Shown here one piece after another: positions 5,251-62,132 of a DNA stretch of 64,000 nt; position 1 is the stretch's first letter, and the number at the start of each line of letters is the position of its first letter. The notes beneath the pieces were generated by a model that saw only the letters and a list, made by a program, of their open reading frames with translations, did no database searches and had not been told where the DNA came from. The position numbers and the translations under genes are program-made. Origin of the DNA: a virus. The stretch is taken from positions 32,001 through 96,000 of the IMG/VR virus record IMGVR_UViG_3300036861_001052, one strand, 5' to 3'.

Positions 5251-5251
<1 letters not shown>
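4511..5251 (-). CDS. GT-A fold glycosyltransferase (family 2-like)
   Basis: IIVVPTRG, YVLTLEDD (DxD-like), VNGIGMGCALWR, TQDLYFC, VRVGH. Confidence 0.85.
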
Positions 5252-6933
<1,682 letters not shown>

Positions 6934-6976
6934 TTATTCTCCGTTAAAATAGACTACCAGAACTTCTCCGGGCCTT

Positions 6977-7312
6977 CTACTCCGCCGCGTGCCGCGCCTC
7001 CCGGTCCTCGACGACCTCTTCGGCGTCGTAGAGAGCGGCTAGCACTTCCAGATAGAAGCGATTCATGGAAGGGGGAGCGATCCCCCCCGCGTCCTGCATG
7101 CTCGCATCCTTCACGAGCATGTCGTGCTCCATGTCGGTGAAGATCTTGTCACCCGGACACGCCAGCTTGTCCGAGATGGAGAGCGCGACCTTCACGTTTC
7201 CAATCCGCCTCCAGAACGGCCTCGTCAGCACCACTTCTTCGAGTACATCCTCGGCCGAGTAGGCCTTGTTGCCAATGGGCACCACCTTCTTCGGCAGTCG
7301 AACCTTCTTCAT
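6977..7312 (-). CDS. Small protein after fibre gene, possible fibre assembly chaperone
   Basis: ATG with AAAGGAG RBS; lies directly downstream of fibre 3; function is inference. Confidence 0.55.
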   Translation of the reverse strand: MKKVRLPKKVVPIGNKAYSAEDVLEEVVLTRPFWRRIGNVKVALSISDKLACPGDKIFTDMEHDMLVKDASMQDAGGIAPPSMNRFYLEVLAALYDAEEVVEDREARHAAE

Positions 7313-7333
7313 GCTCTCTCCTTTTTCACTTCC

Positions 7334-9163
7334 TCATGCCGCGAACGCCGGGACCTTCAACTGGGTCCCGCCGATGTTGATATCCAAAAACCGGTCCACC
7401 GTTGCCGGCACGGCAGCCCCAGCGCCCGCGTTCGCGGTCGTGCTCGTGCCGTTCAGGCGAAGATTGATGCCGTTGAAGCGCCAGGCCGGTAGGCCTCCAG
7501 TCGAGTACTGAATATAGCCGTTCACGGCGTCTGCAGTCGGGTTCGTCTGAGCGTTGGCGACATAGATGATGCCGTCGCCCGTATTCGCCGGAAGCTCCGT
7601 CGTCGACACGCCCGAGAGCTTGACGAGCGAAAGCACTCGCCTGTCGAGCGCGACCTCGGTGGCCTCGACCATTGCCAGCGCTCCGGCCGAAGTATCGTCG
7701 ACATTCAAGCTCATCCTGACACCGCCCATGAGCCCGTTTCCGTCGGGGCCGCCACCAGATAGGAGGAGAATGCCGCCGTCCCCGTCGGCCCCTCCCGCGG
7801 TAACCGACTGCGCGTGTATCCAGAGCCGCTGCGCGGCAGGCCCGAGGCTCGCCTGTTGAATGATGTTCGGGTTTGCGACGGTCCGTATGAACGACAGCTC
7901 CGCCGGCGTAAACTCCGACCTGGTCGAGTTTATCGTGAGCCGCGCCGTTCCGGTGATGTCGACCTGGAATGTCGTCACACAGCGGAGCTGAAGTGTCGGC
8001 GTATGCACGTCGTCGCCGATCTGAAGGCTGTTGGTCGCGGCATCGGCGACGAAGCCCTGCACGTCGAGCGTGTTCGTCGCGTTCCGGTAATAGAGGATCC
8101 AGCCCTTCGTGAGCCTGATCGTTCCGGTGCTTGCGACCGGAGCGGCGAGGCCTCCGCTGCCGTGAATCGCCAGCACCTCTCCGACCTCGAGGGCGTTCGC
8201 AACCTGCACGTTGTAGGTGCCGCTCGGAAAAATCGTCAGCCGATCGGTCGGCGGCGAGCTCGAGGACGCCCGGAAGATGATCTTCTGAGGAACGCTTCCC
8301 GCGGCGACGGCACCGGACACCTCGAATGAAATCTCCGAGCTCGCGACATAGTTCGCGCCGTCGAATCCGGCGGACACGACTCTCGCGAGGCTATCGCCAT
8401 TGGCGACCGTCGTTTGCGCGACGCGCGTGCCCCGGCTCTTCATCCCGAGGAAACGCGCTGCCGCGGTGTCCGCCGAGTGCTGCGCGGCAATGATTCCGCG
8501 CACGGTCGCAGACCCCGTCTGGACGGAAACGACGCTGCCTGCGGCTTCGCCGTTCGTGACGGCGCTGCCGGCGTAGTAGCTCCCGGTCGTGAAGAGATTC
8601 TCGGCCTGGAAGTTCGTGGACCACGTCGGGACGCCGCCGATCGTGATGATGGCCTGGCCATTCGTGCCGCTTGGCGTGATGCCGATCTGGAGCTGTTCGT
8701 TCGCGCCGGGATTGAGCACGGTCGTCGTGATGAGCGAGCCCTCGGCGACCTTCGGATCTAGATAATTAGGCGTCGTGTCGGCCGCCGTCACGGCGACCAG
8801 GTTCGACGCGATGCCCGTCGGGCCCGTAGATCCCGTGGGGCCAGTCGGACCGGTAGCGCCCGTCGGTCCCGTGGGGCCAGTCGGGCCGTCCGTTGGCCCC
8901 GTGGGCCCGGTCGCGCCCGTGTTCGCGGCGCCGCCCGGAGTTCCCGTGGGGCCGCTCGGCCCGGTCGGCCCCGTCGCGCCTGTTGCGCCCGTGTTCGTGG
9001 CGGCTCCGCTCTGGCCCGTGGGGCCCGTACTGCCGCTCGGCCCCGTCGCGCCCGTCTGTCCCGTCGCTCCGGTCGGACCCGTCCCCGCCGTCCCGCCGCC
9101 GAAACCGGGCGGGACACGCGCGGTGCCGCGCCCAGATGTTCCGGTGCGATCTCGGATGGTCAT
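7334..9163 (-). CDS. Collagen-like fibre protein 3 with long beta-rich tail-fibre-like region
   Basis: N-terminal GXT repeats, then [23 protein letters not shown]...GFDG segments typical of phage fibres. Confidence 0.8.
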
Positions 9164-11953: not shown

Positions 11954-12037
11954 GACTCCGAGGATAGCCTGGGGGCGATGCCGTGTGAAGCTCCGAGGAT
12001 CGGGGCCCCGACTTCGGCTATAAAACGGGGCTGCCAC
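11954..12037. promoter_or_regulatory. Divergent promoter region; leaderless sigma70-type promoter on minus strand
   Basis: Minus strand TTCACA-17-TATCCT-7-ATG; TATAAA on plus strand before ATG 12038. Confidence 0.55.
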
Positions 12038-14116
12038 ATGAGTGACCCGGAGGTGCGGCTCGTCCTCTCCATGATCGTCCGGAACGAGTCCCGCGTCATC
12101 GATCGGTGCCTCGATAGCGCCCTCTCTATCGCGCAGGGCTTCGTCATCTCGGACACCGGCTCGACCGACGACACCAAAGAGCGCATCGCGCTAGCCGGAA
12201 AGCGGCACGAAGTGCCAGGGATCGTCGTCACCGATCCCTGGAAGAACTTCGGCTGGAACCGCACCCGCGCCGCGAATGCGACCCGGCGCTGGGTCAAGGA
12301 AAAATCCTGGGACCTTGACCATACCTACATGCTCCTGCTCGACGCGGACATGGTCCTTCGGGTGCTGCCGTCCTTCAAACGGCAAGCTCTTTCCGCCGTT
12401 TACTACCAGATCGAGCAGCGGAGCCCGAGTCTCTCCTGGCTAAACACACGGCTTTGCAGGCTTTCCCATAACTGGGAGGCCATTGGCGTGACGCACGAGT
12501 ACTGGGCGCCGGCCCCCAATGCGTCTCCTGAGCGCCTCGACTCCCTCTACATAGAAGACGTCGGCGACGGCGGCGCCAAGGGCGACAAGACCGCACGGGA
12601 CATACGCCTGCTCACCGACGGGCTCAAAGCCGAGCCGGACAACGTCCGCTACTACTTCTACCTCGCCCAGTCGTACTTCGATGTCGGTAACTACGCTGCG
12701 GCTCTTCCTCTCTATGAAGAGAGGCGGCGTCGCGGCGGATGGGCCGACGAGTGCTGGTACTCGCTCTTCAAGATGGGCCTCTGCGAGCTCCGGCTCGGCC
12801 ACGACCGAGAGGGCACGCGACTTTTGCACCAGGCGTTCGAGGAGAGACCCGGGCGCGCCGAGTCCGTCGCGCACCTCGCCCGCTTCTACAGAGAGCGGGG
12901 CTCGAATAACCTGGCGGTGCTCTTCGCGAGAGAGGCGCTTCGGATCCCAGTCTCGACCGAGAGCCTCTTTGTCGAGACGACCGCGCATCTGGAGATGCCG
13001 CTCGAAGATCTCGGGATCTCCGCCTACTACACGCCGCACAAGGACGAGGGCCGGCTCGCGTGCGCAAAGCTCCTGAGCCTGCCCGGCTCCAGGGAGTTTC
13101 ATAACCACATCCTTCGCTGCACGAGCTTCTATGCAAAGCCCATCGCGCCCCTCGCTGTGCGCAGGGGGACGTTCGCGATCCCGGAGGAGCTCCTGTCCGC
13201 GCCGGGGCCGTTTCTCGGGACCGAAGAGAACAAGACGCGGTACCTACCTAAAAATCCGTCCATTGCCCACCTTGGCCCCGGCTCCTCGCCCCTCGTCAGC
13301 GTGAATCTCGTAAACTACCACCACGAGCGCGGCGTCATCTTCGCGCCGAAGGATCCTGACGGCATCGTCCGCACCCGCAACGTAAACTTCGTCTGGGATC
13401 CCGTCCGCGCAGAGACAACCCATCTGCGAGAGTTCACTCCGTCGGAGTGGCCGGGCGGATGGGCAGCCGAGCCGCACGTCAGAGGTCTCGAGGATGTGCG
13501 ACTCTTCGCTCACCGTCAGCAAATATGGTTTACCGCAACGTGCTTTCATCCTCCGACGAAGCCAGGCTCACGCCATCTGTTCATCCCGAGCGTAGTCCTC
13601 GGTAAGCTCGGTCCCGCCGGCGTGGAGCATCTGACCGCGCTCACCTACGCCCGGGCCGGGCACTGCGAGAAGAATTGGCTCCCGTGGTCCAACGGAGAGC
13701 AGGTCTTCATGCTCTACGGCTACGATCCGCTCGTCGTGCTCGAGGTAGACGTCGTGACCGGCGTTGCGCGCGAGACCAGCCGGCGCTCACCAGGCCGTTC
13801 AGCTGCCTCCTGGCGCGGCGGCGCGCCGCCCGAAATCTCTCCATGGGGCAGGCTCGTGTTCATCGTGCACGAGGTCGCTCACTTCGACGACCGGCGCGTC
13901 TACATGCACCGCTTCGTCGAGCTCGACCGGGAGCGCTCGCTCTCTCGGTGTAGCCTTCCCTTCGTGATTGACCACGCGGGCGTCGAATACGTGGCCGGGC
14001 TCCTTTCGCTCGGAGAGACCGCGATCGTGACGTACGGACACGAAGAACGTGAAGCGCGGTGGGCCGAGTTTTCCTGGGAGGACATCGGCCGCTTACTCGG
14101 AGAAGACGCACTATGA
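12038..14116 (+). CDS. Glycosyltransferase family 2 + TPR + C-terminal beta-propeller glycosidase-like domain
   Basis: LSMIVRNESRVIDRCL, DTGSTD, LLLDAD, GVTHE; TPR RYYFYLAQSY; C-terminal GLEDVRLF, EKNWLP, WRGG, IVHEV. Confidence 0.88.
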   Translation: MSDPEVRLVLSMIVRNESRVIDRCLDSALSIAQGFVISDTGSTDDTKERIALAGKRHEVPGIVVTDPWKNFGWNRTRAANATRRWVKEKSWDLDHTYMLLLDADMVLRVLPSFKRQALSAVYYQIEQRSPSLSWLNTRLCRLSHNWEAIGVTHEYWAPAPNASPERLDSLYIEDVGDGGAKGDKTARDIRLLTDGLKAEPDNVRYYFYLAQSYFDVGNYAAALPLYEERRRRGGWADECWYSLFKMGLCELRLGHDREGTRLLHQAFEERPGRAESVAHLARFYRERGSNNLAVLFAREALRIPVSTESLFVETTAHLEMPLEDLGISAYYTPHKDEGRLACAKLLSLPGSREFHNHILRCTSFYAKPIAPLAVRRGTFAIPEELLSAPGPFLGTEENKTRYLPKNPSIAHLGPGSSPLVSVNLVNYHHERGVIFAPKDPDGIVRTRNVNFVWDPVRAETTHLREFTPSEWPGGWAAEPHVRGLEDVRLFAHRQQIWFTATCFHPPTKPGSRHLFIPSVVLGKLGPAGVEHLTALTYARAGHCEKNWLPWSNGEQVFMLYGYDPLVVLEVDVVTGVARETSRRSPGRSAASWRGGAPPEISPWGRLVFIVHEVAHFDDRRVYMHRFVELDRERSLSRCSLPFVIDHAGVEYVAGLLSLGETAIVTYGHEEREARWAEFSWEDIGRLLGEDAL

Positions 14117-15468
14117 AGCTCGGCATCCCCACCCTGAACCAGTACGATTCCGTCCGGCGGCTCATCGAAAGCGCCGAGCGCGGTTCGATCGCGCCGGAGT
14201 CCTACATCGTCATCGACAACGGCGGCGGTTACCTGCCTGGCCCGCCGCTGTCCTCTGGTCGCGACGTCGAAGTCGTGCGCCCGGGAATCAATCTCGGCGT
14301 CGCCGCCTCCTGGAATCGCCTGCTCGACATGGCGGGGGACCACACCATCGCCATCTCGAATGACGACGTCGTCTTCGGCCCTGAGACGTTTCGGTCGCTC
14401 TTCGAGGCTTCCCAGCGCTTTCTCTTCGTCGGCGCGGTCGGCGGCTGGGCACTCTTCGCTCAGAGCCCCGAGTGCACGCGTCGCGTCGGCCACTACGACG
14501 AGCACTTTTACCCGGCCTACTACGAGGACTGCGACTACCTCCTCCGCATGCGGCGCGCGGGCGTAGAGTTTCACGACATAGGCTGGGCCGGGGCGACGCA
14601 CGACGGAGAGGCGACGACAAAGAGCGCCTCCGAGTCGGAGCGCGCGCTCATCGCCGAAGGTCGCTCCCGGAACTACTCCTATTTCGTGACCAAGTGGGGC
14701 ACGGACAGCCCCCGGTGGGGAAACCCCGACGTCAATAACTTCAAGGAGCCCTTCGACGGAAAGACTCCGGCGTACTGGTCGAACAGGCCGGAGACGCTCC
14801 CGACCAGTATGGAGGATCTCCGCACGGTCATCTCCCCCATGCGCTTCGACGTCCTGAACCTCATCGCCGATACGATCGGTGCCAAGCGCTACCTCGAGAT
14901 CGGAGTCTCCGACGGAGAGAGCATGCGCAAGGTGCACATCGACGAGCGCTGGGGCATCGATCCGAAGGCGCAGCTTTCCGGGGTCACTTCGTCGACGGTC
15001 TTCATCCCCCAGACCTCCGACTTCTTCTTCGCAAAGATTGCTCCGAATGTCGGTAAATTCGACCTCGTCTTCATCGACGGCGATCACCAGGCCGAGCAGG
15101 TCTACCGAGAAGTCAGAGCGGCGCTTCCTCTTCTCACCCAGAAGGGGGTCATCGTGCTCCACGACTGTAACCCCCACACCGAGGCCATGCAGGAAGTGCC
15201 GCACCGCTCCGGCTGGCAATGGACAGGCGACGTCTGGAAAGCGGTCGCGCGCCTGCGCGCAAGAGGAGAGTTCGTGCACGTCATCCCGGCAGACTTCGGC
15301 ATCGGCATCGTGCTCCCGAAGTCTCGGGGGCACGCCCCAGAGACGACCATCATGCCCTGTGAGTGGTTTCGCCTGCGCTACCAAGATCTCGAAGCCGACC
15401 GGGAGAACCTCCTCGGCCTGATTCGTCCTGGCGGCTGGGCCGACTGGATCCGCCGCTTCGTCGCCTGA
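14113..15468 (+). CDS. Glycosyltransferase family 2 fused to class I SAM methyltransferase (Methyltransf_24-like)
   Basis: ATG 14113; IVIDNG, NLGVAASWN, ISNDDV, PAYYEDCDY; then YLEIGV, FDLVFIDGDH, IVLHD, WTGDVWKA. Confidence 0.88.
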   Translation: MKLGIPTLNQYDSVRRLIESAERGSIAPESYIVIDNGGGYLPGPPLSSGRDVEVVRPGINLGVAASWNRLLDMAGDHTIAISNDDVVFGPETFRSLFEASQRFLFVGAVGGWALFAQSPECTRRVGHYDEHFYPAYYEDCDYLLRMRRAGVEFHDIGWAGATHDGEATTKSASESERALIAEGRSRNYSYFVTKWGTDSPRWGNPDVNNFKEPFDGKTPAYWSNRPETLPTSMEDLRTVISPMRFDVLNLIADTIGAKRYLEIGVSDGESMRKVHIDERWGIDPKAQLSGVTSSTVFIPQTSDFFFAKIAPNVGKFDLVFIDGDHQAEQVYREVRAALPLLTQKGVIVLHDCNPHTEAMQEVPHRSGWQWTGDVWKAVARLRARGEFVHVIPADFGIGIVLPKSRGHAPETTIMPCEWFRLRYQDLEADRENLLGLIRPGGWADWIRRFVA

Positions 15469-30016: not shown

Positions 30017-30746
30017 AACCGAGCTCCTCGCCGAAAACATCGACGGCTACCGAGACGCCGAAAACCGCCTCGTGCTCTGCGCCAAATGCCCTGAGACGGG
30101 CGGCGGCTGCGCAAACGAGTTCTCGGTCGTCCCGGTAGGCGAACGCCCCGTGTGGCGTGACCGTAGGCTCGTCTCGGAGCCTTGCCCGAAGTGGGCGGAG
30201 TTCAAGACCAGGCGCCGGCTCAAAAATTCGGACGTCCCGGAGTTCTACTGGGACTCGTCGTTTTTCGCGTACGGCCAGCCGAAAAATTCCGCGCGCCTCG
30301 CCGAGGTCATGAAGTTTTCGCAAGCGATCGCCGAGGGCCGACGAGAGTTTCTCGTGCTCTCCGGGCCAGCCGGATCGGGTAAGACCCGTCTCGCCGTCGC
30401 GCTCTTGCGAGCGCTCGTGCAAAAAGTTCCGCGAGCCCTGCTCTGGTACGCCGACGTCACGACCGTCCGGAGCCAGATGAAACTTCGCTACGACGGCGAC
30501 GACGAGTCGCAAGGAGATCCGTTCGGGCACGCGCGAGAGTCGCACGTGCTCGTCGTCGATAACGTCGATCCAGCGAAGTACGCGAAAGAGCCCTGGGTCG
30601 CCGATCGCGTCGGAGCGCTTCTCCGCGAGCGGTGGCTCGGGCGGCGCGTGACCGTCGTCTGCACGCACGAGCGCTTTGCCGATCTCGAAAAAGCCTACGG
30701 AGACATCCCACAATTTTCCGAGACGAGACGTTGCCAGCTGTCGTGA
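29841..30746 (+). CDS. DnaC/IstB-like AAA+ helicase loader
   Basis: Walker A GPAGSGKT, Walker B VLVVDN, Cys cluster at N-terminus, RERW...TVVCT. Confidence 0.8.
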   Translation: MAMEGFRKTTGRLSEEVTATRSTLKATLRQQAQNAGGSSNWLAGNCPRLASGSPQGFTETELLAENIDGYRDAENRLVLCAKCPETGGGCANEFSVVPVGERPVWRDRRLVSEPCPKWAEFKTRRRLKNSDVPEFYWDSSFFAYGQPKNSARLAEVMKFSQAIAEGRREFLVLSGPAGSGKTRLAVALLRALVQKVPRALLWYADVTTVRSQMKLRYDGDDESQGDPFGHARESHVLVVDNVDPAKYAKEPWVADRVGALLRERWLGRRVTVVCTHERFADLEKAYGDIPQFSETRRCQLS

Positions 30747-32182
30747 AAGCTCCAGAGGAGCTCCGCCCGATCCCCGGACGAGTTCCGCCGCACGATCTCG
30801 ACGCCGAGGGCGCCGTCATCGCGGCCATCTTGCTGGTCGCATCCCAATTCGATCTCGTGATCGGGATCGTGAACTCCCTCTCGTTTTACTCCGACGCGAA
30901 CAAGATGGTCTTCAAGGCCATCGAAGATCTCGTGAGTCGCAACGAGCCCGTCGACGCGATGACCGTCGCCTCCGAGCTCCGCCGCGCGGGCACTCTCGAT
31001 CGCGCCGGCGGCTCGCCGTACATCGCCCAGCTCATCGGCGCGACGCCCGCCGTCGCCAACGTCGTCACGCACGCCGAGATCGTGCGAGACAAGTGGCAGG
31101 CGCGTCAGCTCATCCTCCGCGGCCAGCGCTTCATCGCGGAAGCGTACGTCGGGACCGATCCGTCGATCGAGATCATCCAGCGCGCCGAGACGTCGCTCGA
31201 CGAGCTCCTGTCTACCGGCGTCGGAAGCGAGCTCATCGCCGTCGGAAAAATCGCCGCCGATGAAGTCGCGATCCGCGAAGAGCTTCGCCGCACGGGCTCC
31301 ACCGGCCGCGGCACGGGCTCCCCGACCGGCTACGAGAGACTCGATCGGATGTGCGGCGGCACGCACGACACGGATCTCGTGATCGTCGCCGGTCGGCCAG
31401 GGATCGGCAAAACGACCTTCGCCATGAATCTCATCGCAAACCTCGCGCGCCCCTCGATCGGCGGCCCTCCGGAAGGCGCGGCCTTCTTCTCGCTCGAGAT
31501 GCCGAAAGAGCAAGTCGCGATCCGCTTCGCGTGCGCCGAGCAACAAGTCTCCGTCTCGAACGCTCGCCGCAATTCTCTTCGCGACGACGCGTGGGCGCGC
31601 TTTCAGCGCGGCGCCGAAGAGCTCCAGAGGTTTCCGATCTGGATCGACGACGCGCCGACGATCACCGTGCTCGAGGTCCGAGCGCGCGTGAAAAAACTCA
31701 TGCGCGACATCGCCTCTGGCAAAGCCGGAGTCCCGTGCTCACGGCTGAAGCTCGTCGCGGTAGACTATCTGCAGCTCATGCAGGGGATCCGGCAGAAGGG
31801 CGACACGCGCGAGAGCGAAGTCGCGAGCCTCTCTCGCGGGCTGAAAGCGCTCGCGAAAGATCTCGGCCTCACTGTCATCGGCGTCTCGCAGCTGAACCGC
31901 AATCCCGAGCGCGGAGGAAAAAAAGACAAGCGGCCGGAGCTCAGTGACCTGAGAGAATCTGGCGCGCTAGAGCAGGACGCGGACGTGGTGTGGTTCGTGT
32001 ACAGGAAGGCTTACTACGATCGCGAAGCGGCGACCGATGACGCCGAGCTCATCGTCGCGAAAGATCGCAACGGTCCGACCGGCACGGTGCCGCTCCGCTT
32101 CGTCGACGAGTACGTGCGCTTCTACGAGCGCGCCGAAGAGACCTACGACGATCTCACCCAGAACTTCGCCGAGGACCGATGA
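30743..32182 (+). CDS. dnaB: Replicative DNA helicase DnaB
   Basis: PPHDLDAEGAVI, GRPGIGKT, FSLEM, VDYLQL, SQLNR, DLRESGALEQDAD, KDRNGPTG; GTG 30743. Confidence 0.96.
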   Translation: MKAPEELRPIPGRVPPHDLDAEGAVIAAILLVASQFDLVIGIVNSLSFYSDANKMVFKAIEDLVSRNEPVDAMTVASELRRAGTLDRAGGSPYIAQLIGATPAVANVVTHAEIVRDKWQARQLILRGQRFIAEAYVGTDPSIEIIQRAETSLDELLSTGVGSELIAVGKIAADEVAIREELRRTGSTGRGTGSPTGYERLDRMCGGTHDTDLVIVAGRPGIGKTTFAMNLIANLARPSIGGPPEGAAFFSLEMPKEQVAIRFACAEQQVSVSNARRNSLRDDAWARFQRGAEELQRFPIWIDDAPTITVLEVRARVKKLMRDIASGKAGVPCSRLKLVAVDYLQLMQGIRQKGDTRESEVASLSRGLKALAKDLGLTVIGVSQLNRNPERGGKKDKRPELSDLRESGALEQDADVVWFVYRKAYYDREAATDDAELIVAKDRNGPTGTVPLRFVDEYVRFYERAEETYDDLTQNFAEDR

Positions 32183-56815: not shown

Positions 56816-59272
56816 GTGAGAGGCAAGCACAAAGCGTACGGTCGAGCGTTTCCAATCCGGGAAGCGGACGTCGGCTCGTACAAGGTAGCGCGTCACCGTC
56901 CCTATCGAGCGAATCCGATGGGCGTGACGACGCTGTCGAGCGTCAACGGCCCGGGCGCGTATTCCGCGCGTGCGGCCTCGAGTGGGCTTTCCCGCGCCGA
57001 GCGTCTGCGGCGCGCGCGCCGGCTCATGGAGAACCGAAGCATGCAAGGACACAAGGTGCACAGGGCCAAGTTCGTACGGCGCATGAAGGCAAACAGCGGT
57101 CGGATGACCTCGAACGCTGCCCGACGCCGCGCGGGCAAACGCCTCGCTGCGTTTCAGGCAGCTCGGCGTCGTGGGCTTTCGAAGGAAGCGGCGATGCGGA
57201 GCGCGTCCCGGAAGTTTCCGAAGAGTCGCCGGCGTGGCTACCGCCGAAACGAGGGACCGGCTCAGGTCGCTTCCCCCGCCTACCGGTCGGGCCACGAGCG
57301 GATCTACGGGAAAAAGGCTCAGCGAAGGCGCGCCGCCGCGGCAAAGCGGAAAGCGCATCGCGCCGAGGTCGCCGCGCGTAAGCGCGCTCGTAAGGCTGCC
57401 GCTCGCGCGAAGAAGCGCGCAGCGATGACGCCGGAAAAGCGCGCTTCGCTCCGAAAGCGCCGCCGCAGGGCGAGCTTTCCTAAGCAGTACAAGAAGGTGC
57501 GGGGCCGAAGGGGCAAGATGCACCGAGTGCGAGTGGCGTACGGACCGTACCGCCGCGCGCGCCTTTCCGATCCGAGGTCAGGCCGAAAGCGCCTCTCCTA
57601 CACCTATCGAGGCAAACGCGGCAAACGCCGCAAGATTCCGCAGTGGGCCGTTGCCGGAGCAGTCAGTGCGCGCGACTACAAGACGTCGAGCGTGTACGGG
57701 CGCGCCCGGGAGCGGATCGCACGGCGTCGTAAACGTGCTGCCGCTCGCGTAGAGCGCAGCGGAGATGCGTTCGTTCCGAACGCGGGAGCAAGAAAAGTGG
57801 CAAGACGAAGAAAGCGAAAAGGGCACAAGCGTTCCCGCCGGGGACGTCGCAAGGTGAAACGGACGCGCGGTCGCGCGCGGCGCCGATCGGCGGGTCACAC
57901 CGTCCGCAGGCGCAAGAGGCGCAAGTCAGCGAGCCGCCGGACAGCCCGGAAGCACCGTGCGAGCCCGCATCGCCGGAAGAAGCGTCGTGCGCACGCGAAG
58001 AGGCGTTCCACGCGCCGCCGGTCCAAGCGCCGGTCGCACCCGCGTCGGATCGGTCGCCGCAAGGTGAGGCGCCTGAGAAAAGGCATCTACCTGGTCGCGA
58101 ACCGCCGTCGCCGTCGCTCGCGCCGCCGCTACGAGGAAAACCGCAGGGTCCGCCGGCATCGTCGTCGGAAGCTCGCGGCAAATCCGCGTCGCAGGCGTCG
58201 CTCGCGGCGTCACGTCGCAAACCGCAGGCGCCGAACGCATCGGCGTCGGAGCTACCGTCGTAACCGGAGCTACCGCCGTAACGGCTTCATGGGCGACTTG
58301 AAGACGCTCGCGAAGATGGGCTTCCTGGTCCTCGGCGGCTTCTTCCTCCACAAGGGGATCACGGGCGGAATCATTCGGGCGCTGACGTCTACGGACGCCT
58401 CGACCGGAGCGATGACGTTCGCCTCGCTGCCGATGATCGGAGCCGACGGCAAACCGACGGTTCTCGCGACTTGGCAGAAGCCGCTCGTCGGAGGCCTGTT
58501 CGGCGGTCTCGGCATCTTCGGGATCTCCAAGCTCCCGATGAAGTCGGACACCCGGAATGCGCTGTCAGCGGGCGTGGTGACGTCGTTCCTTCAGAGCCTC
58601 GTCCACACGATCCTGACTGTCGCAAACCAGCCGGAGGTCCTCTCCTATCTCGAGGGTTACCAGAACAGCGCAGCGTACTCGCTCCGCGGTACCCGAGGGA
58701 AACGGCGCCGTCACCCGATGCGAGGCCTCGGCGTCGCACGGAACGCGACGTCGATCATGCCGCACTACGCACCTGTCGGACAGTTCCAGCAGGCCGCAGC
58801 CGGCATGGGCGAGTACTTCGCGGCTCAGAGCGGCATGGGTGAGTACTTCGCGGGTCCCGGCGTCGAAGGCGTCGGTCACTACGAGAAGGCTGGCCCCTTG
58901 GCGCTTCAGCCCTCGACGAGCCGGATGGGTAACCTTCCGATCGACGACGGCATTCGCCCCGACTCGAACCTCGACCACGTGATGGATCTCGCGGAAAGCG
59001 CGGCCGGTCTCGGCCAAGGTTTCCGTCAGGCCGCCGCGGGAGTCGGGGCGGGCCCGGGTTACCGGCAGGCAGCTGCCGGTATGGGCGAGTACTTCTCGGC
59101 TGCCCCGCAAGACGGCGGCTACAAGGAGTTCTCGGTCCCGACGCAGTCGCAGTGGATCCCCTCGGGGCCCCTCTGGGCCGGCACGATGAGTGCCGACGCT
59201 GCGTACACGGAGAGCGAGCTCCCGGCTGGGATCCTCCAGGGTCCTGGCGGAAACGGAGTGCTCTCGGGCTGA
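56816..59272 (+). CDS. Protamine-like Arg/Lys-rich core protein fused to a membrane domain and GMG-repeat tail
   Basis: About 490 aa extremely R/K-rich, then 2-3 hydrophobic helices, then repeated (AA/QS)GMGEYF; lies directly upstream of the capsid gene. Confidence 0.8.
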   Translation: MRGKHKAYGRAFPIREADVGSYKVARHRPYRANPMGVTTLSSVNGPGAYSARAASSGLSRAERLRRARRLMENRSMQGHKVHRAKFVRRMKANSGRMTSNAARRRAGKRLAAFQAARRRGLSKEAAMRSASRKFPKSRRRGYRRNEGPAQVASPAYRSGHERIYGKKAQRRRAAAAKRKAHRAEVAARKRARKAAARAKKRAAMTPEKRASLRKRRRRASFPKQYKKVRGRRGKMHRVRVAYGPYRRARLSDPRSGRKRLSYTYRGKRGKRRKIPQWAVAGAVSARDYKTSSVYGRARERIARRRKRAAARVERSGDAFVPNAGARKVARRRKRKGHKRSRRGRRKVKRTRGRARRRSAGHTVRRRKRRKSASRRTARKHRASPHRRKKRRAHAKRRSTRRRSKRRSHPRRIGRRKVRRLRKGIYLVANRRRRRSRRRYEENRRVRRHRRRKLAANPRRRRRSRRHVANRRRRTHRRRSYRRNRSYRRNGFMGDLKTLAKMGFLVLGGFFLHKGITGGIIRALTSTDASTGAMTFASLPMIGADGKPTVLATWQKPLVGGLFGGLGIFGISKLPMKSDTRNALSAGVVTSFLQSLVHTILTVANQPEVLSYLEGYQNSAAYSLRGTRGKRRRHPMRGLGVARNATSIMPHYAPVGQFQQAAAGMGEYFAAQSGMGEYFAGPGVEGVGHYEKAGPLALQPSTSRMGNLPIDDGIRPDSNLDHVMDLAESAAGLGQGFRQAAAGVGAGPGYRQAAAGMGEYFSAAPQDGGYKEFSVPTQSQWIPSGPLWAGTMSADAAYTESELPAGILQGPGGNGVLSG

Positions 59273-59447
59273 GCTGTAGCGCTTAACACCGCCGGCCCCG
59301 GTAGGACGAGCGCGCCTCACCGCTCTCGAGCCCCGGGGCAGCGGTGTCAGAACCGACCGGCGGAAAAGCCCCGAAAGGGGCCGGGACGACACCCGACCAA
59401 AACGGATCTTCCGGTCACCCACCCGTTTCCAAAGGAAACATACCAAC

Positions 59448-61028
59448 ATGGCAAAACTGACGAACGTCAGAGAGCGTGTGCATCACGCGGACGTTCGGTG
59501 AAAGCGAAAGCTGGTGCCCCTCGGCGGTAACGCCGGGGTGATAACTGGGTGAATCAAACCGTTTCGTGATGAGAATGAGAACTTCAGACACAGACATCGC
59601 CTGGCTTGCTGGAATCGTGGACGGCGAGGGCTGCTTCTCCGTGAAGCGTCCCATCGTTCGCAAGACCTACAAGAAGGGGCGAGTGACGAGCTACCAAGTG
59701 TGGCTGGTCGTCTGTAATACGTCCGAGCCGATGGTACGTCGGGTCACGGAGATCTTCGGATCTCTCGGGATCGGGCACCAGCCGGTGAGGCGCGTCTGGA
59801 AGGGAAAGAAGGCAACTCGGTGGCAGTACTGGGTGCACGTCGCGCGAAAGCACGAGCTCTTGCGTCTGACGGAACTCCTCCTGCCTTTCCTCGTGGCCAA
59901 AAAAGACGAGGCCGAGATCGTGCGCTGGTTCCTATCGAGGGCTTGCAGCACGAGGCAATACGTTCCCACTCTTCTCGATCGTACCGCGCTCGAAGCGATG
60001 GCCACGATCAAGCGACACGGCGGGGAAGCCCCTGCTGAGGTGCGAGAGCTCCTTCGCGAGGTAATCCCGAGCCAAGCCGTTTCTGGGATCCGTGCGGCCC
60101 ACGGATTGGAGACGGAAGGCGTAGAGACTAGGTCGGTGACTCCCAAGAATAACCCGACCCACGAGTGCCCGGCGCCCCTCCACTTGGTGGGGTGATGAGA
60201 TAGCCCGACACTCCGGGAAACCGGAGAGCCCGCATAAACAGCGGGCATGACAGAAGCAAGCAGCCGTTTTACGACACGCTCATCCGAACCTCCGGTCTCG
60301 GCGGTTCCATCCCCAAGGTGAATCAGCGGACCTCGCTGTTCACGAACCAGGCTCGCCAGGACGACATCAACGCCCTGACGAACCTGCCGAACGGTTCGAC
60401 GCTCCCGTCCGACCAGAGCCACGTGACGCTCGCGCTTCGCGTGTTCATCTGGTTCCGCAATCCGCAGATCCGCGCAAGCGGCTTTGCGAACGGTGCGATC
60501 AAGAACAACGGCGACTTCTCCCAAGCGGGAGCGGCGGCGTTCTTCTCGCAAGGCGGAGTCGACCCGAACGGCGCGACCGCGGGCCCCGGCGCCTTCAACT
60601 ACCCGGGCTCGATCGAGGACGTCTACCGCCTGTACTGGCAGTCGGAAGAGCAGCTTCACTGGAGCTACGGCACCGGTGACAAGTTCTCGATCACGAACAT
60701 GCCGACGAAGTACTTCCCGGACGGCGGTGGCCTCTGGGGTGACCTCGGTGGCTCTTCGGATCTCATCCACTTCAACAACGGCACGCCGGACCACACGGCA
60801 ATTCTCCGGCTCGCGCGCGCGATCCTTCTGCCTCCCCGGCAGAACATCAAGTGCGCCGCCGAGATCGTGCCCTTGCCCGACGGTGGAAACGCCCAGATCG
60901 CTGGATCGACCGTGACCGGCAACGGCCGGAACATGCTGTCGCTCCAGGACAACCTGAACGCGACCGACGGGATCAACAAGGTGATTCAGTTCACCTTCGA
61001 CGGTCTCTTCGCCCGCGACGTTCAGTAG
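59448..61028 (+). CDS. Putative major capsid protein (jelly-roll type), spliced: 59448-59483 + 60261-61028, 267 aa
   Basis: AAAGGA RBS + ATG 59448; joined reading MAKLTNVRERVH|QPFYDTLIRT...LF...TNL..GSTLPSDQ; exon 2 has no in-frame ATG after TAG 60201; the capsid identity is inference from motif pattern and context. Confidence 0.7.
59484..60260 (+). ncRNA. Group I self-splicing intron (777 nt)
   Basis: Exon ends in U, intron ends in G; IGS GCTGGTGC (59510-59517) pairs GCAU (P1, U-G) and CAGC (P10); Q-like AATCCCGAGCCAAG, R-like GTAGAGACTA, S-like GAGATAGCCC; P9 CTCCGG-GAAA-CCGGAG. Confidence 0.9.
59566..60195 (+). CDS. Intron-encoded single-motif LAGLIDADG homing endonuclease
   Basis: DIAWLAGIVDGEGCFSV, LVVCNTS, LLPFLVAKK; 3' end reads through the intron core. 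Confidence 0.92.
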   Translation: MMRMRTSDTDIAWLAGIVDGEGCFSVKRPIVRKTYKKGRVTSYQVWLVVCNTSEPMVRRVTEIFGSLGIGHQPVRRVWKGKKATRWQYWVHVARKHELLRLTELLLPFLVAKKDEAEIVRWFLSRACSTRQYVPTLLDRTALEAMATIKRHGGEAPAEVRELLREVIPSQAVSGIRAAHGLETEGVETRSVTPKNNPTHECPAPLHLVG

Positions 61029-61139: not shown

Positions 61140-62132
61140 ATGGCAAGTTGGGAACAGGTCATTCGAGACCTGCAGAACACGGCAGGCTTTGCCGCCGCAA
61201 AGGCGAAGGAAGCGATCGACAAGGCAGGCCGAAACGAGAGCGCCCTCGCGCTCGTCCGGCAAGAGCTCGAACGCGAGCAGCGCTCCATGCAAGCGCTCGC
61301 CGACGCGCTCGAAAAGGTCCAGGGCCGCGGCGCGGGCTACGGTAACGGTAACGTCGGCGTCGACGAGCGCGTGCGCTACATCGAGTCGATCCCGGGTCGC
61401 AGGATCCCGTTCGACTTCGTCGTGACGATTCCTATTTCTTCGAACTCGGTCTCGCAGGTCCAGGGCACGAAGACCGTGAGCCAGGACGGGCCGTTCGTGG
61501 CGGTTGCGCGCTACGCGGCGTTTCAGTCCGCGTTCCAGTTTCAACGGGTAGACCCCGTCACGCAGGAGAAGGCGGTCTTTCAAGGACGCTCCTTCGGCCG
61601 TTTTCGTCCGATGCACTCCATGTGGGACCTGAACGATGCCTCGACCGGCGTCTTTCAGCCGACGACCGGCATCGCTCAGCCGGGCACGGGCGCGCCGATC
61701 GTGGCGGCTCCCTCGAACATGTCGTCCTTCCGCACGATGGAAGGCGACTTCATCATCCAGATGCTGAATCAAGGCGCTGGCTACCCTCGCGACAATCAGG
61801 ACGGCGGCATTCCGAGCGCCTGGTACTCCGAGAGCATCAACAGCCCCTTCCAGCTCGGAGCCTTGGACTTCTTCGAGCGCGGCGAGACGATCCAGTGGAA
61901 GGTCACGCCGACGCACGTCAATAACCCGCCGGCAGGTAACCTTTCGGGTTACGCTGCGGGTGGCGTGTTCCCGTTCCTCGCGAGCCAGTACGACGTGCAC
62001 GAGGGCATCAACGACCAGCTCGATCCCGAGGCAACGAGCGATCCCATCACGAGGCTCCCCGACGGGATCTTGTGGATAGGGATGCACGGGATCAAGATCG
62101 TGCAGCCCCCCGGGCCGGTGAGGCTCACCTAA
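61140..62132 (+). CDS. Second putative capsid protein (N-terminal coiled coil + beta-rich domain)
   Basis: GGAGG RBS; IPFDFVVTI...TVSQDGPFVAV...FFERGETIQWKV...IGMHGIKI beta-strand pattern. Confidence 0.55.
   Translation: MASWEQVIRDLQNTAGFAAAKAKEAIDKAGRNESALALVRQELEREQRSMQALADALEKVQGRGAGYGNGNVGVDERVRYIESIPGRRIPFDFVVTIPISSNSVSQVQGTKTVSQDGPFVAVARYAAFQSAFQFQRVDPVTQEKAVFQGRSFGRFRPMHSMWDLNDASTGVFQPTTGIAQPGTGAPIVAAPSNMSSFRTMEGDFIIQMLNQGAGYPRDNQDGGIPSAWYSESINSPFQLGALDFFERGETIQWKVTPTHVNNPPAGNLSGYAAGGVFPFLASQYDVHEGINDQLDPEATSDPITRLPDGILWIGMHGIKIVQPPGPVRLT

Follow-up and report, generated by a model that had tools for sequence, protein, structure and literature searches.

How can a virus make a conserved protein from a gene whose first 12 codons are separated from the remaining 255 by 777 nucleotides (nt)? 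The question is raised by positions 59448-61028 of a 64,000-nt window, which covers bases 32001-96000 of the 138,414-base pair (bp) record G000 of an uncultivated soil virus, a genome with direct terminal repeats that is rated complete. Comparative evidence points with high confidence to the following answer: positions 59484-60260 would be a mobile group I intron in the gene for a conserved protein of 267 amino acids (aa), with splice sites that lie 7 nt upstream of those of its relatives. Below, all coordinates are those of the window, and a slash in a nucleotide sequence marks the splice point or, in a guide, the boundary between its two halves.

A conserved gene interrupted after codon 12

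The interrupted gene and the element within it are made up of three parts:

59448-59483, + strand: exon 1 of the host gene, with an ATG at 59448 and 12 codons (MAKLTNVRERVH); its last base, T59483, would be the U of the 5′ splice site
59484-60260, + strand: predicted group I intron of 777 nt, with G60260 as its last base (omega-G); absent at this point from 7 of 7 intron-less relatives
60261-61028, + strand: exon 2 of the host gene, 255 codons plus stop, beginning QPFYDTLIRT

The mechanical gene caller starts the host open reading frame (ORF) at a GTG at 60318 and ends it at 61028, and the text that follows G60260, CAGCCGTTTTACGAC, is in frame with it. An earlier note on this DNA had proposed that the ORF list misses a 12-codon exon; that exon is present at 59448-59483, and 20 of 24 fetched homologues start with exactly MAKLTNVRERVH. 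Homologues were sought with exon 2 alone as the query (255 aa, expectation value (E) ≤ 0.001), so that the N-termini of the hits serve as an independent test of the junction. This search returned 573 homologues from the protein database, the best of which are 266-267 aa long, matching the 267 aa (12 + 255) predicted for the spliced protein. The frame that splicing was proposed to restore, RERVH-QPFYDT, is likewise borne out, with RER[VI]HQPF[YFW]D running across the predicted junction in 23 of the 24. None of these homologues begins at the equivalent of 60318, a start that the note had named as telling against an intron. The remaining one of the 24, P0016 (283 aa, NCBI source), has an unrelated 32-residue N-terminus and joins the family at ...LIRTSG; it may represent a miscalled start in another interrupted copy.

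Intron-less homologues, which the note had suggested looking for, are found at the DNA level as well. The gene is uninterrupted at CAT/CAG in all seven related viral loci (L002-L008, on contigs of 63-140 kb and at 56-92% identity). The junction text of L002 is GAGCGTGTGCATCAGCCC, and in the DNA alignment this locus reads GAGCGTGTGCAT CAGCCCTTCTACGAC, with 777 nt missing exactly between CAT and CAG. Judged by these alignments, the host gene is split after codon 12 by an inserted element. Because the intron and exon 2 both begin with CA, the junction could be placed up to 2 nt further to the right with an identical messenger RNA as the result; the group I rule, with T as the last base of exon 1 and G as the last of the intron, is satisfied by the present placement only. 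An intein was considered and rejected on account of in-frame stop codons.

The intron-bearing allele recurs letter for letter in two further soil runs, where one piece spans the 3′ junction. The intron-less joint was not seen in the contigs of four DNA runs, among which those with partial cover are uninformative on absence, and a tblastn search of exon 2 against 50,697 phage records gave no match.

Intron boundaries and the internal guide

Two short features near the 5′ end of the element bear on how it would be removed:

59499-59501, + strand: in-frame TGA, 16 nt into the intron in the frame of exon 1; read-through amounts to 5 codons
59510-59517, + strand: internal guide, GCTG/GTGC

A U before the intron and a G at its end, the boundaries read in the earlier note, are in place here (T59483 and G60260), as in all 17 aligned copies of the intron. 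The guide also matches both exons as had been proposed. Its 3′ half, GTGC (59514-59517), pairs with the end of exon 1, GCAT (59480-59483), to form paired region P1, with U59483.G59514 at the splice site, while its 5′ half, GCTG (59510-59513), pairs with the start of exon 2, CAGC (60261-60264), to form P10. The window's guide occupies the alignment columns of the relatives' guide, and in those relatives P10 covaries with the exon (UCUAC with GUAGG, UCUGG with CCAGG, and UCUUC with GAAGG), as a genuine internal guide should do. An in-frame stop begins 6-16 nt past the 5′ splice site in all 17 copies.

Covariation in the ribozyme core

Seventeen distinct full-length intron copies were aligned, and a group I fold with 17 helices and 90 pairs in all was written on the alignment, in which the P8 and P6b columns are partly gapped. 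Standard pairs fill 96.0% of the 1493 cells of this alignment, compared to 35.0-45.3% in a control that slides each 3′ partner along by 1-3 columns, and compensatory changes are found in 49 of the 90 pairs. None of 500 shuffles reaches any of five structure measures; the kinship of the 17 sequences inflates this shuffle statistic but leaves the slid-partner control unaffected. A helix scan blind to the structure recovers P2, P3, P6a, P6b, P7, P7.1, P9 and a helix that closes an insert in the core. The fold contains the pseudoknot in which P7 crosses P3, and its core motifs align to the Rfam group I model RF00028. The conserved core elements noted earlier from the window alone are thus recovered across the family, and the ribozyme core is, on this covariation, under clear structural selection. 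The elements, with P for paired and J for joining regions, are:

59519-59538, + strand: P2 hairpin, 8 bp with a GTAA loop; 8 of 8 pairs changed on both sides; also found by the blind scan and in the minimum free energy (MFE) fold
59545-59551, + strand: 5′ strand of P3, CTGGGTG, pairing with 60166-60172; 97.5% of cells paired, 2 compensatory pairs; found by the blind scan
60166-60172, + strand: 3′ strand of P3, TGCCCGG, pairing with 59545-59551
60021-60069, + strand: P4-P5-P5a domain; P4 is 60021-60025 with 60065-60069, J4/5 is AAG and J5/4 is TAA; P4 and P5 invariant
60071-60120, + strand: P6-P6a-P6b; 13 of 18 pairs compensatory (12 of 15 in P6a/P6b); found by the blind scan
60124-60130, + strand: 5′ strand of P7, GAGACTA with A60125 bulged, pairing with 60201-60206; 99% of cells paired, with one pair compensatory (CG in place of UA in 4 copies)
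60131-60159, + strand: P7.1-like extra hairpin, placed after P7 and before the 3′ strand of P3; 100% of cells paired, with compensatory changes in 6 of 6 pairs
60174-60193, + strand: P8 hairpin; 4 of 5 pairs compensatory
60201-60206, + strand: 3′ strand of P7, TAGCCC, preceded by J8/7 GATGAGA; pairing figures as for the 5′ strand, and also seen in the RF00028 alignment
60211-60246, + strand: P9 (60211-60226, GAAA loop) and P9.1 (60228-60246); 8 of 12 pairs compensatory

The pair G60126-C60205, next to the bulged A60125, is invariant in the 17 copies, and by analogy with the Tetrahymena and Azoarcus introns it is the presumed guanosine-binding pair. Extra pairings P7.1 and P7.2 between P7 and the 3′ strand of P3 are the mark of subgroup IA; this intron has one hairpin there (60131-60159), and no second was seen. 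Both pairings are named among the intron class features in a review (PMC3984707). Support for the structure is drawn from covariation and not from MFE folding, which gives local alternatives for P4 and P5 in the 3′ core.

An endonuclease gene that runs through the core

Within the intron lies an ORF, and between the 5′ strand of P3 and P4 lies the insert that holds much of it:

59559-59562, + strand: 5′ strand of the insert-closing helix, 4 bp (CCGT with ACGG at 60017-60020); 100% paired, 1 compensatory and 2 one-sided pairs; found by the blind scan
59566-60195, + strand: LAGLIDADG homing-endonuclease ORF, predicted; 209 aa from GTG 59566, with its stop, TGA, at 60193-60195 in J8/7

In-frame ATGs are also present at 59569 and 59575. 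The assignment to the LAGLIDADG enzymes, made in the earlier note from the window alone, is supported by the motif LAGIVDGEG at residues 14-22, which has the conserved acidic residue, within a segment (A12-C23) that is at least 90% conserved in 40 relatives, and by family profiles. The protein has 106 database relatives, the closest being P0122 and P0123 at 76% identity, and 40 of them were aligned to make the family profile, which also served as the query for the contig collections. Against solved enzymes, this profile matches I-CvuI (E 1.2e-7), I-MsoI and I-CreI derivatives over profile positions 6-124, and 20 distinct LAGLIDADG enzyme sequences in all at E ≤ 0.001; the single protein reaches E 0.008 against the same class of solved enzymes. 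A match to phrog_5046 (E 2e-14) carries the library label 'HNH endonuclease'. Since the profile match is limited to positions 6-124, the nuclease domain would end before about residue 150.

The insert of about 460 nt sits between J3/4 (AAU, after the 5′ strand of P3) and P4, and contains roughly codons 1-150 of the ORF. The last 59 or so codons (60017-60195, codons 151-209 approximately) run on through P4, P5, P6, P7, the extra hairpin, the 3′ strand of P3 and half of P8. The C-terminal tail that they encode (GGEAPAE...EVIPSQAV...EGVETRSV...HECPA) shows the highest conservation within the protein, even in relatives with 35-45% overall identity, as expected if the RNA is the conserved entity. 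The ORF-less introns that this gene carries in some other viruses have CUGGGUG-AAU-UGCGGG at the corresponding place, without an insert, and share with the window's intron AGAGACUA, the extra hairpin before the 3′ strand of P3, and GAUGAGAUAGUC.

Evidence against the reading, and two rivals

Several results weigh against a functional group I intron at 59484-60260. At the gathering threshold, Rfam returns 0 matches for the whole window. In E-value mode RF00028 aligns to 59970-60227 with recognisable J6/7-P7, J8/7 and P9 motifs, at 18.4 bits (E 0.049), far below a gathering cut-off of 50 bits that is an operational threshold and not a structural feature; the Infernal check put forward in the earlier note therefore did not come out in its favour. 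It is unusual for an insert to lie between J3/4 and P4, and we know of no tested example. P1 is short, having 4 bp up to the splice site and 2 more past it, and is missing from the MFE fold of the isolated P1-P2 region (z -1.48). Only two cells of the window's core are non-standard, a U-C in P5a and an A.C at 60127/60204 in P7, and the latter, found in the window alone, adjoins the presumed guanosine-binding pair. The Pfam matches of the endonuclease, to LAGLIDADG_3 (E 0.0021) and LAGLIDADG_1 (E 0.0092), are both under threshold (18.7 bits against a cut-off of 22.5 and 17.3 bits against 23.1), and only 15 of the 40 aligned relatives match each of these families at E ≤ 0.01 (best E 2.2e-7). Finally, no RNA run is listed with 59300-60500, and splicing is inferred.

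The RF00028 score probably falls below the cut-off because a large insert with the endonuclease gene sits inside the core; on the simplest reading the model is unable to bridge some 460 nt. The ORF-less introns score 77.4 bits (L108, 2506-2747), 76.8 bits (L108, 2930-3173) and 67.8 bits (L124, 2430-2668). Among loci that carry the endonuclease, matches are obtained in 8 of 13 and also in L123, L124, L125 and L127, at 22.8-35.6 bits, with no match at E ≤ 1 in the other 5 of the 13. No match was found in the 7 intron-less loci.

These results bear on the proposal that the insert has simply killed or truncated the gene, so that nothing is spliced and either a short protein is made from GTG 60318 or a pseudogene is left. 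The ORF caller does find 60318-61028 only, and both the sub-threshold RF00028 score and the lack of a listed RNA run for the stretch would agree with it. However, exon 1 matches that of the homologues in every letter, the guide fits both exons, the core is under structural selection, 18 other distinct copies keep the layout, and a start at the equivalent of 60318 is found in none of the 24 fetched homologues. We regard a dead or truncated gene as very unlikely.

A less drastic proposal accepts the intron as real but no longer self-splicing: it would need a helper, for instance a host chaperone or, in the role of maturase, the LAGLIDADG protein that it encodes; or it would splice poorly and so throttle the host protein. 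The window-only A.C beside the presumed guanosine-binding pair, the U-C in P5a and the large insert before P4 all speak for this proposal, and PMC3984707 describes a LAGLIDADG protein that serves as maturase to a bacterial 23S ribosomal RNA intron. Yet in the window's core the remaining 78 pairs are intact, a G.U at the same position of P7 is tolerated in four relatives, and a complete genome with terminal repeats, together with an allele that recurs in other samples, suggests that the gene is expressed well enough. Dependence on a helper, or poor splicing, is thus unlikely but deserves to be taken seriously, and an intron that removes itself from the transcript of the 267-aa gene is the reading that we carry forward.

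Spread of the intron family and an intron hot spot

The same layout, in which a short exon ending in ...RER[VR]H is followed by a LAGLIDADG ORF and exon 2, was found in 23 further loci, representing at least 18 distinct sequences besides the window. When the single endonuclease protein was used as the query no relative was found in viral contigs, and it was the alignment query that found them; of 217 relatives from the metagenome scan with this alignment, the best 80 were examined. Endonuclease identity to the window's copy is 60-69% among the relatives, whether the host gene is 38% or 63% identical, and the closest relatives of the host gene (80-92% identity) are without the intron. This pattern of identities fits horizontal homing into a conserved site. 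Because the overlapping stretch is constrained twice, as RNA and as protein, divergence of the ORF tail is slowed, and this also bears on the endonuclease identity pattern.

Other introns were observed in homologues of the same gene. In L108 (1380-3364) the homologous gene holds three introns, one with an endonuclease and two ORF-less, and in L124 (1119-2700) it holds two, one of them ORF-less. LAGLIDADG genes that are 42% identical to the window's lie at other sites of the gene in L125 (39-1389), L126 (3-1347) and L127 (1242-2563), with insertion at residues 123-150 or so in L125 and L126 and at about 64-123 in L127; weak RF00028 matches of 29.6 and 35.6 bits stand beside these genes. The endonuclease lineage has colonised several sites of one gene, and with several introns and several sites in it, this gene is an intron hot spot. 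One intron-bearing gene, in L085 (CAYMLQ010000028.1), is on a 31-kb contig binned in a metagenome-assembled genome labelled uncultured Lentisphaeraceae, which may be a hint of the host or a binning artefact.

A 7-nt shift of the insertion site

The window's copy differs from its family in where it is inserted. In all 18 relatives, exon 1 continues as ...CAU CAG CCG U; the intron that follows has G as its last base, and UCUAC, UCUGG or UCUUC opens exon 2, so that the joined exons read QPF[YWF]D. The splice sites are therefore CCGT/TC in these 18 and CAT/CAG in the window, 7 nt upstream, where exon 2 starts with CAGCCGU. The guide has changed with them: in the same alignment columns the relatives have GUAGG/GCGGC and the window has AGCUG/GUGCC, which fits GCAT/CAGC and cannot pair with the old site, now CGCGG. 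In addition, the P1 loop of the window's copy is enlarged by a 14-nt insertion. The first 7 nt of the intron (CACGCGG) were considered as a relic of the exon end CAGCCGU, for which the case is weak at best, with 4 of 7 letters agreeing and 2 of these explained by P1 pairing.

If the window's intron instead spliced where its relatives do, after 59490 and 60267, the product would read ...RERVH-HAV-YDT. These downstream sites are also in frame, they are the position used by all 18 relatives, and the VYDT that they give is found in some of them. But here they would place a G instead of a U before the intron and a U instead of a G at its end, the window's guide GUGC is unable to pair with CGCGG, and the QPF common to 23 of 24 homologues would be lost (HHAVYD, as against HQPFYD in homologues of 92-93% identity). 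Use of the downstream sites is accordingly extremely unlikely, and splicing at CAT/CAG remains the reading that we adopt.

We lean, with more reserve than for the intron itself, towards a natural re-targeting, in which both splice sites moved 7 nt upstream, the guide was rewritten for the new exon context and the P1 loop gained 14 nt, all in a gene that is an intron hot spot. The route of the shift could have been reverse splicing after a guide mutation, or aberrant homing rescued by a guide change. In the endonuclease tree the window falls within an unresolved 19-row clade, so that either site may be the older. A limited literature search found no description of a shifted group I insertion site or of an ORF insert at J3/4. 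A copy in which splice sites and guide have moved together by 7 nt offers a direct handle on target-site change in group I introns and, if true, the re-targeting would be a change of site caught in the act.

Proposed mechanism of splicing and homing

The features above suggest the following sequence of events. The gene would be transcribed as one RNA, and ribosomes starting at ATG 59448 would stop at the TGA read in the sequence in the frame of exon 1, to be released before they reach the guide; this stop at 59499 could thereby protect the folding of the intron. The guide half GUGC (59514-59517) would pair with the end of exon 1, GCAU, and set a U.G at the splice site. The core, consisting of the P3-P8 and P4-P6 domains and of P7 with G60126-C60205, would bind guanosine and direct the cut after U59483. 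In the second step GCUG (59510-59513) would align the CAGC of exon 2 and G60260 would be exchanged, with ligation yielding ...CGU GUG CAU/CAG CCG UUU..., which encodes RERVH-QPFYDT. Meanwhile, the I-CreI-like single-motif endonuclease would cleave alleles that lack the intron, close to the point of insertion, and repair of the break would spread the intron by homing. Throughout, the stretch of about 59 codons through P4-P8 would act as protein tail and ribozyme alike.

The host protein, its neighbours and the virus

The interrupted gene had been called the putative major capsid gene of an apparently tailless virus, and only part of this description stands. An AlphaFold model of the intron-less homologue P0001 (93% identical; 39 aligned sequences) gives a beta sandwich, predicted to be a single jelly roll, with a mean predicted local distance difference test score (pLDDT) of 75.9 and a predicted template modelling score (pTM) of 0.78. 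A Foldseek search of this model against PDB and BFVD returned nothing at E ≤ 0.001, and capsid jelly rolls dominate the weak rows. With VIA-align the best Z is 6.8, with the SPV1 capsid protein at 5.8, PRD1 P5 at 5.7 and TNF-like and carbohydrate-binding domains at 5-6.4, values that all lie within the tool's range for a common arrangement. No Pfam or PHROG family was found for the 267-aa protein or its neighbours; its neighbours in the protein atlas are without a Pfam family, and the PRD1 P2/P3-like clusters reach 0.76-0.77 only. The protein is probably a jelly-roll virion protein, a fair working label for a predicted fold, whereas 'major capsid protein' is a guess. The predicted jelly roll thus supports one part of the earlier description; the capsid identity is not borne out by a best Z of 6.8 and mixed matches. 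Nor is the lack of a tail, for which the genome gave no match to Terminase_6N or the HK97-type Phage_capsid, the sole two tailed-phage hallmarks searched.

On either side of the gene lie two further ORFs of the + strand:

56816-59272, + strand: 818-aa ORF directly upstream, rich in arginine and lysine at about residues 60-480, then with hydrophobic and glycine-rich segments
61140-62132, + strand: 330-aa next gene, with 583 homologues, as widespread as the intron-bearing gene, and of no family

The 818-aa ORF has no Pfam or PHROG match and might encode a DNA-condensing or internal virion protein. The model of the 330-aa neighbour, at a pLDDT of 54 only, has a long N-terminal helix followed by a beta-rich part, and the protein could be a second shell protein.

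Elsewhere, the genome encodes a DnaB helicase, two collagen-repeat proteins, and glycosyltransferase and methyltransferase genes (window 5251-9163, 11978-15468 and 30632-32182). Outside the window it encodes a DDE transposase, a 1279-aa ORF with a phage-integrase domain (1229 aa searched), an AAA ATPase, and an endolysin-like Amidase_2/PG_binding_1 protein. The amidase with its peptidoglycan-binding domain suggests a bacterial host. Relatives of the virus are found on contigs of 63-298 kb.

Comparison with known systems and significance

Among single-motif LAGLIDADG enzymes, I-CreI, I-CvuI and I-MsoI belong to algal chloroplast ribosomal RNA introns. Like them (PDB 5a74, 3fd2, 1mow), the window's protein has one LAGLIDADG motif and by analogy is expected to act as a homodimer on a roughly symmetric target. 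Unlike them, it ends in a tail of about 60 residues that is specified by ribozyme sequence, and its sequence similarity to that family is remote.

The introns of the T4 genes td, nrdB and sunY resemble this one in lying in conserved phage protein genes, in having an early in-frame stop and an extra hairpin between P7 and P3, and in that homing by an endonuclease is to be expected. Their ORFs encode GIY-YIG and HNH enzymes and sit in peripheral loops. In contrast, the ORF insert of the window lies between J3/4 and P4 and the frame runs through P4-P8. Phage introns mostly carry GIY-YIG, HNH, PD-(D/E)xK or EDxHD enzymes, according to the review PMC3984707, so that a LAGLIDADG gene is the less common case. 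Endonuclease ORFs that extend into the intron core are described in the same source (PMC3984707) as a known arrangement, and as in those cases one stretch is constrained here as both RNA and protein, over about 59 codons from P4 to half of P8.

The closest likeness in phage structural genes is to mycobacteriophage LittleE (Cluster J), in whose capsid gene splicing of a group I intron was demonstrated by reverse transcription PCR and N-terminal sequencing; the same article cites a spliced group I intron in the capsid gene of lactococcal phage Tuc2009 (PMC3706429). With these precedents an intron in a capsid gene is nothing unheard of, which tempers the earlier note's view that one in the capsid gene of an apparently tailless virus would be unusual. 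The LittleE intron is likewise about 0.8 kb long with an endonuclease gene, lies in a virion structural gene, is preceded by U and ends in G, is missing from close relatives, and interrupts a protein needed in large amounts (PMC3706429). In contrast to the window's virus, LittleE is tailed, has an HK97-type capsid protein, and carries an HNH endonuclease transcribed leftwards (PMC3706429); here a LAGLIDADG enzyme is encoded in the same orientation as the host gene, whose product is predicted to be a jelly roll, and the case is known from sequence alone. Phage Silence has a group I intron with an endonuclease gene in its terminase gene (PMC4599081). The capsid gene of Faustovirus is split by group I introns, and giant-virus capsid genes are described as intron hot spots (PMC6247863, PMC7290515). 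The homologous gene here also hosts several introns (three in L108 and two in L124), while Faustovirus differs in being a eukaryotic virus with a double-jelly-roll capsid protein. The principle of endonuclease-bearing introns in phage capsid genes is already known, and the window is a further example of it; what is noteworthy is the insert between J3/4 and P4, the long overlap of ORF and core, and the 7-nt re-targeting.

For the viruses concerned, a widespread, undescribed environmental group with genomes of 110-300 kb, the intron corrects the gene model of a probable key virion gene: automatic callers miss the 12-codon exon and would annotate a truncated product. For group I introns, this family offers many natural sequence variants of a ribozyme with a core that is also protein-coding, which may be of use in ribozyme engineering and in the study of ribozyme evolution.

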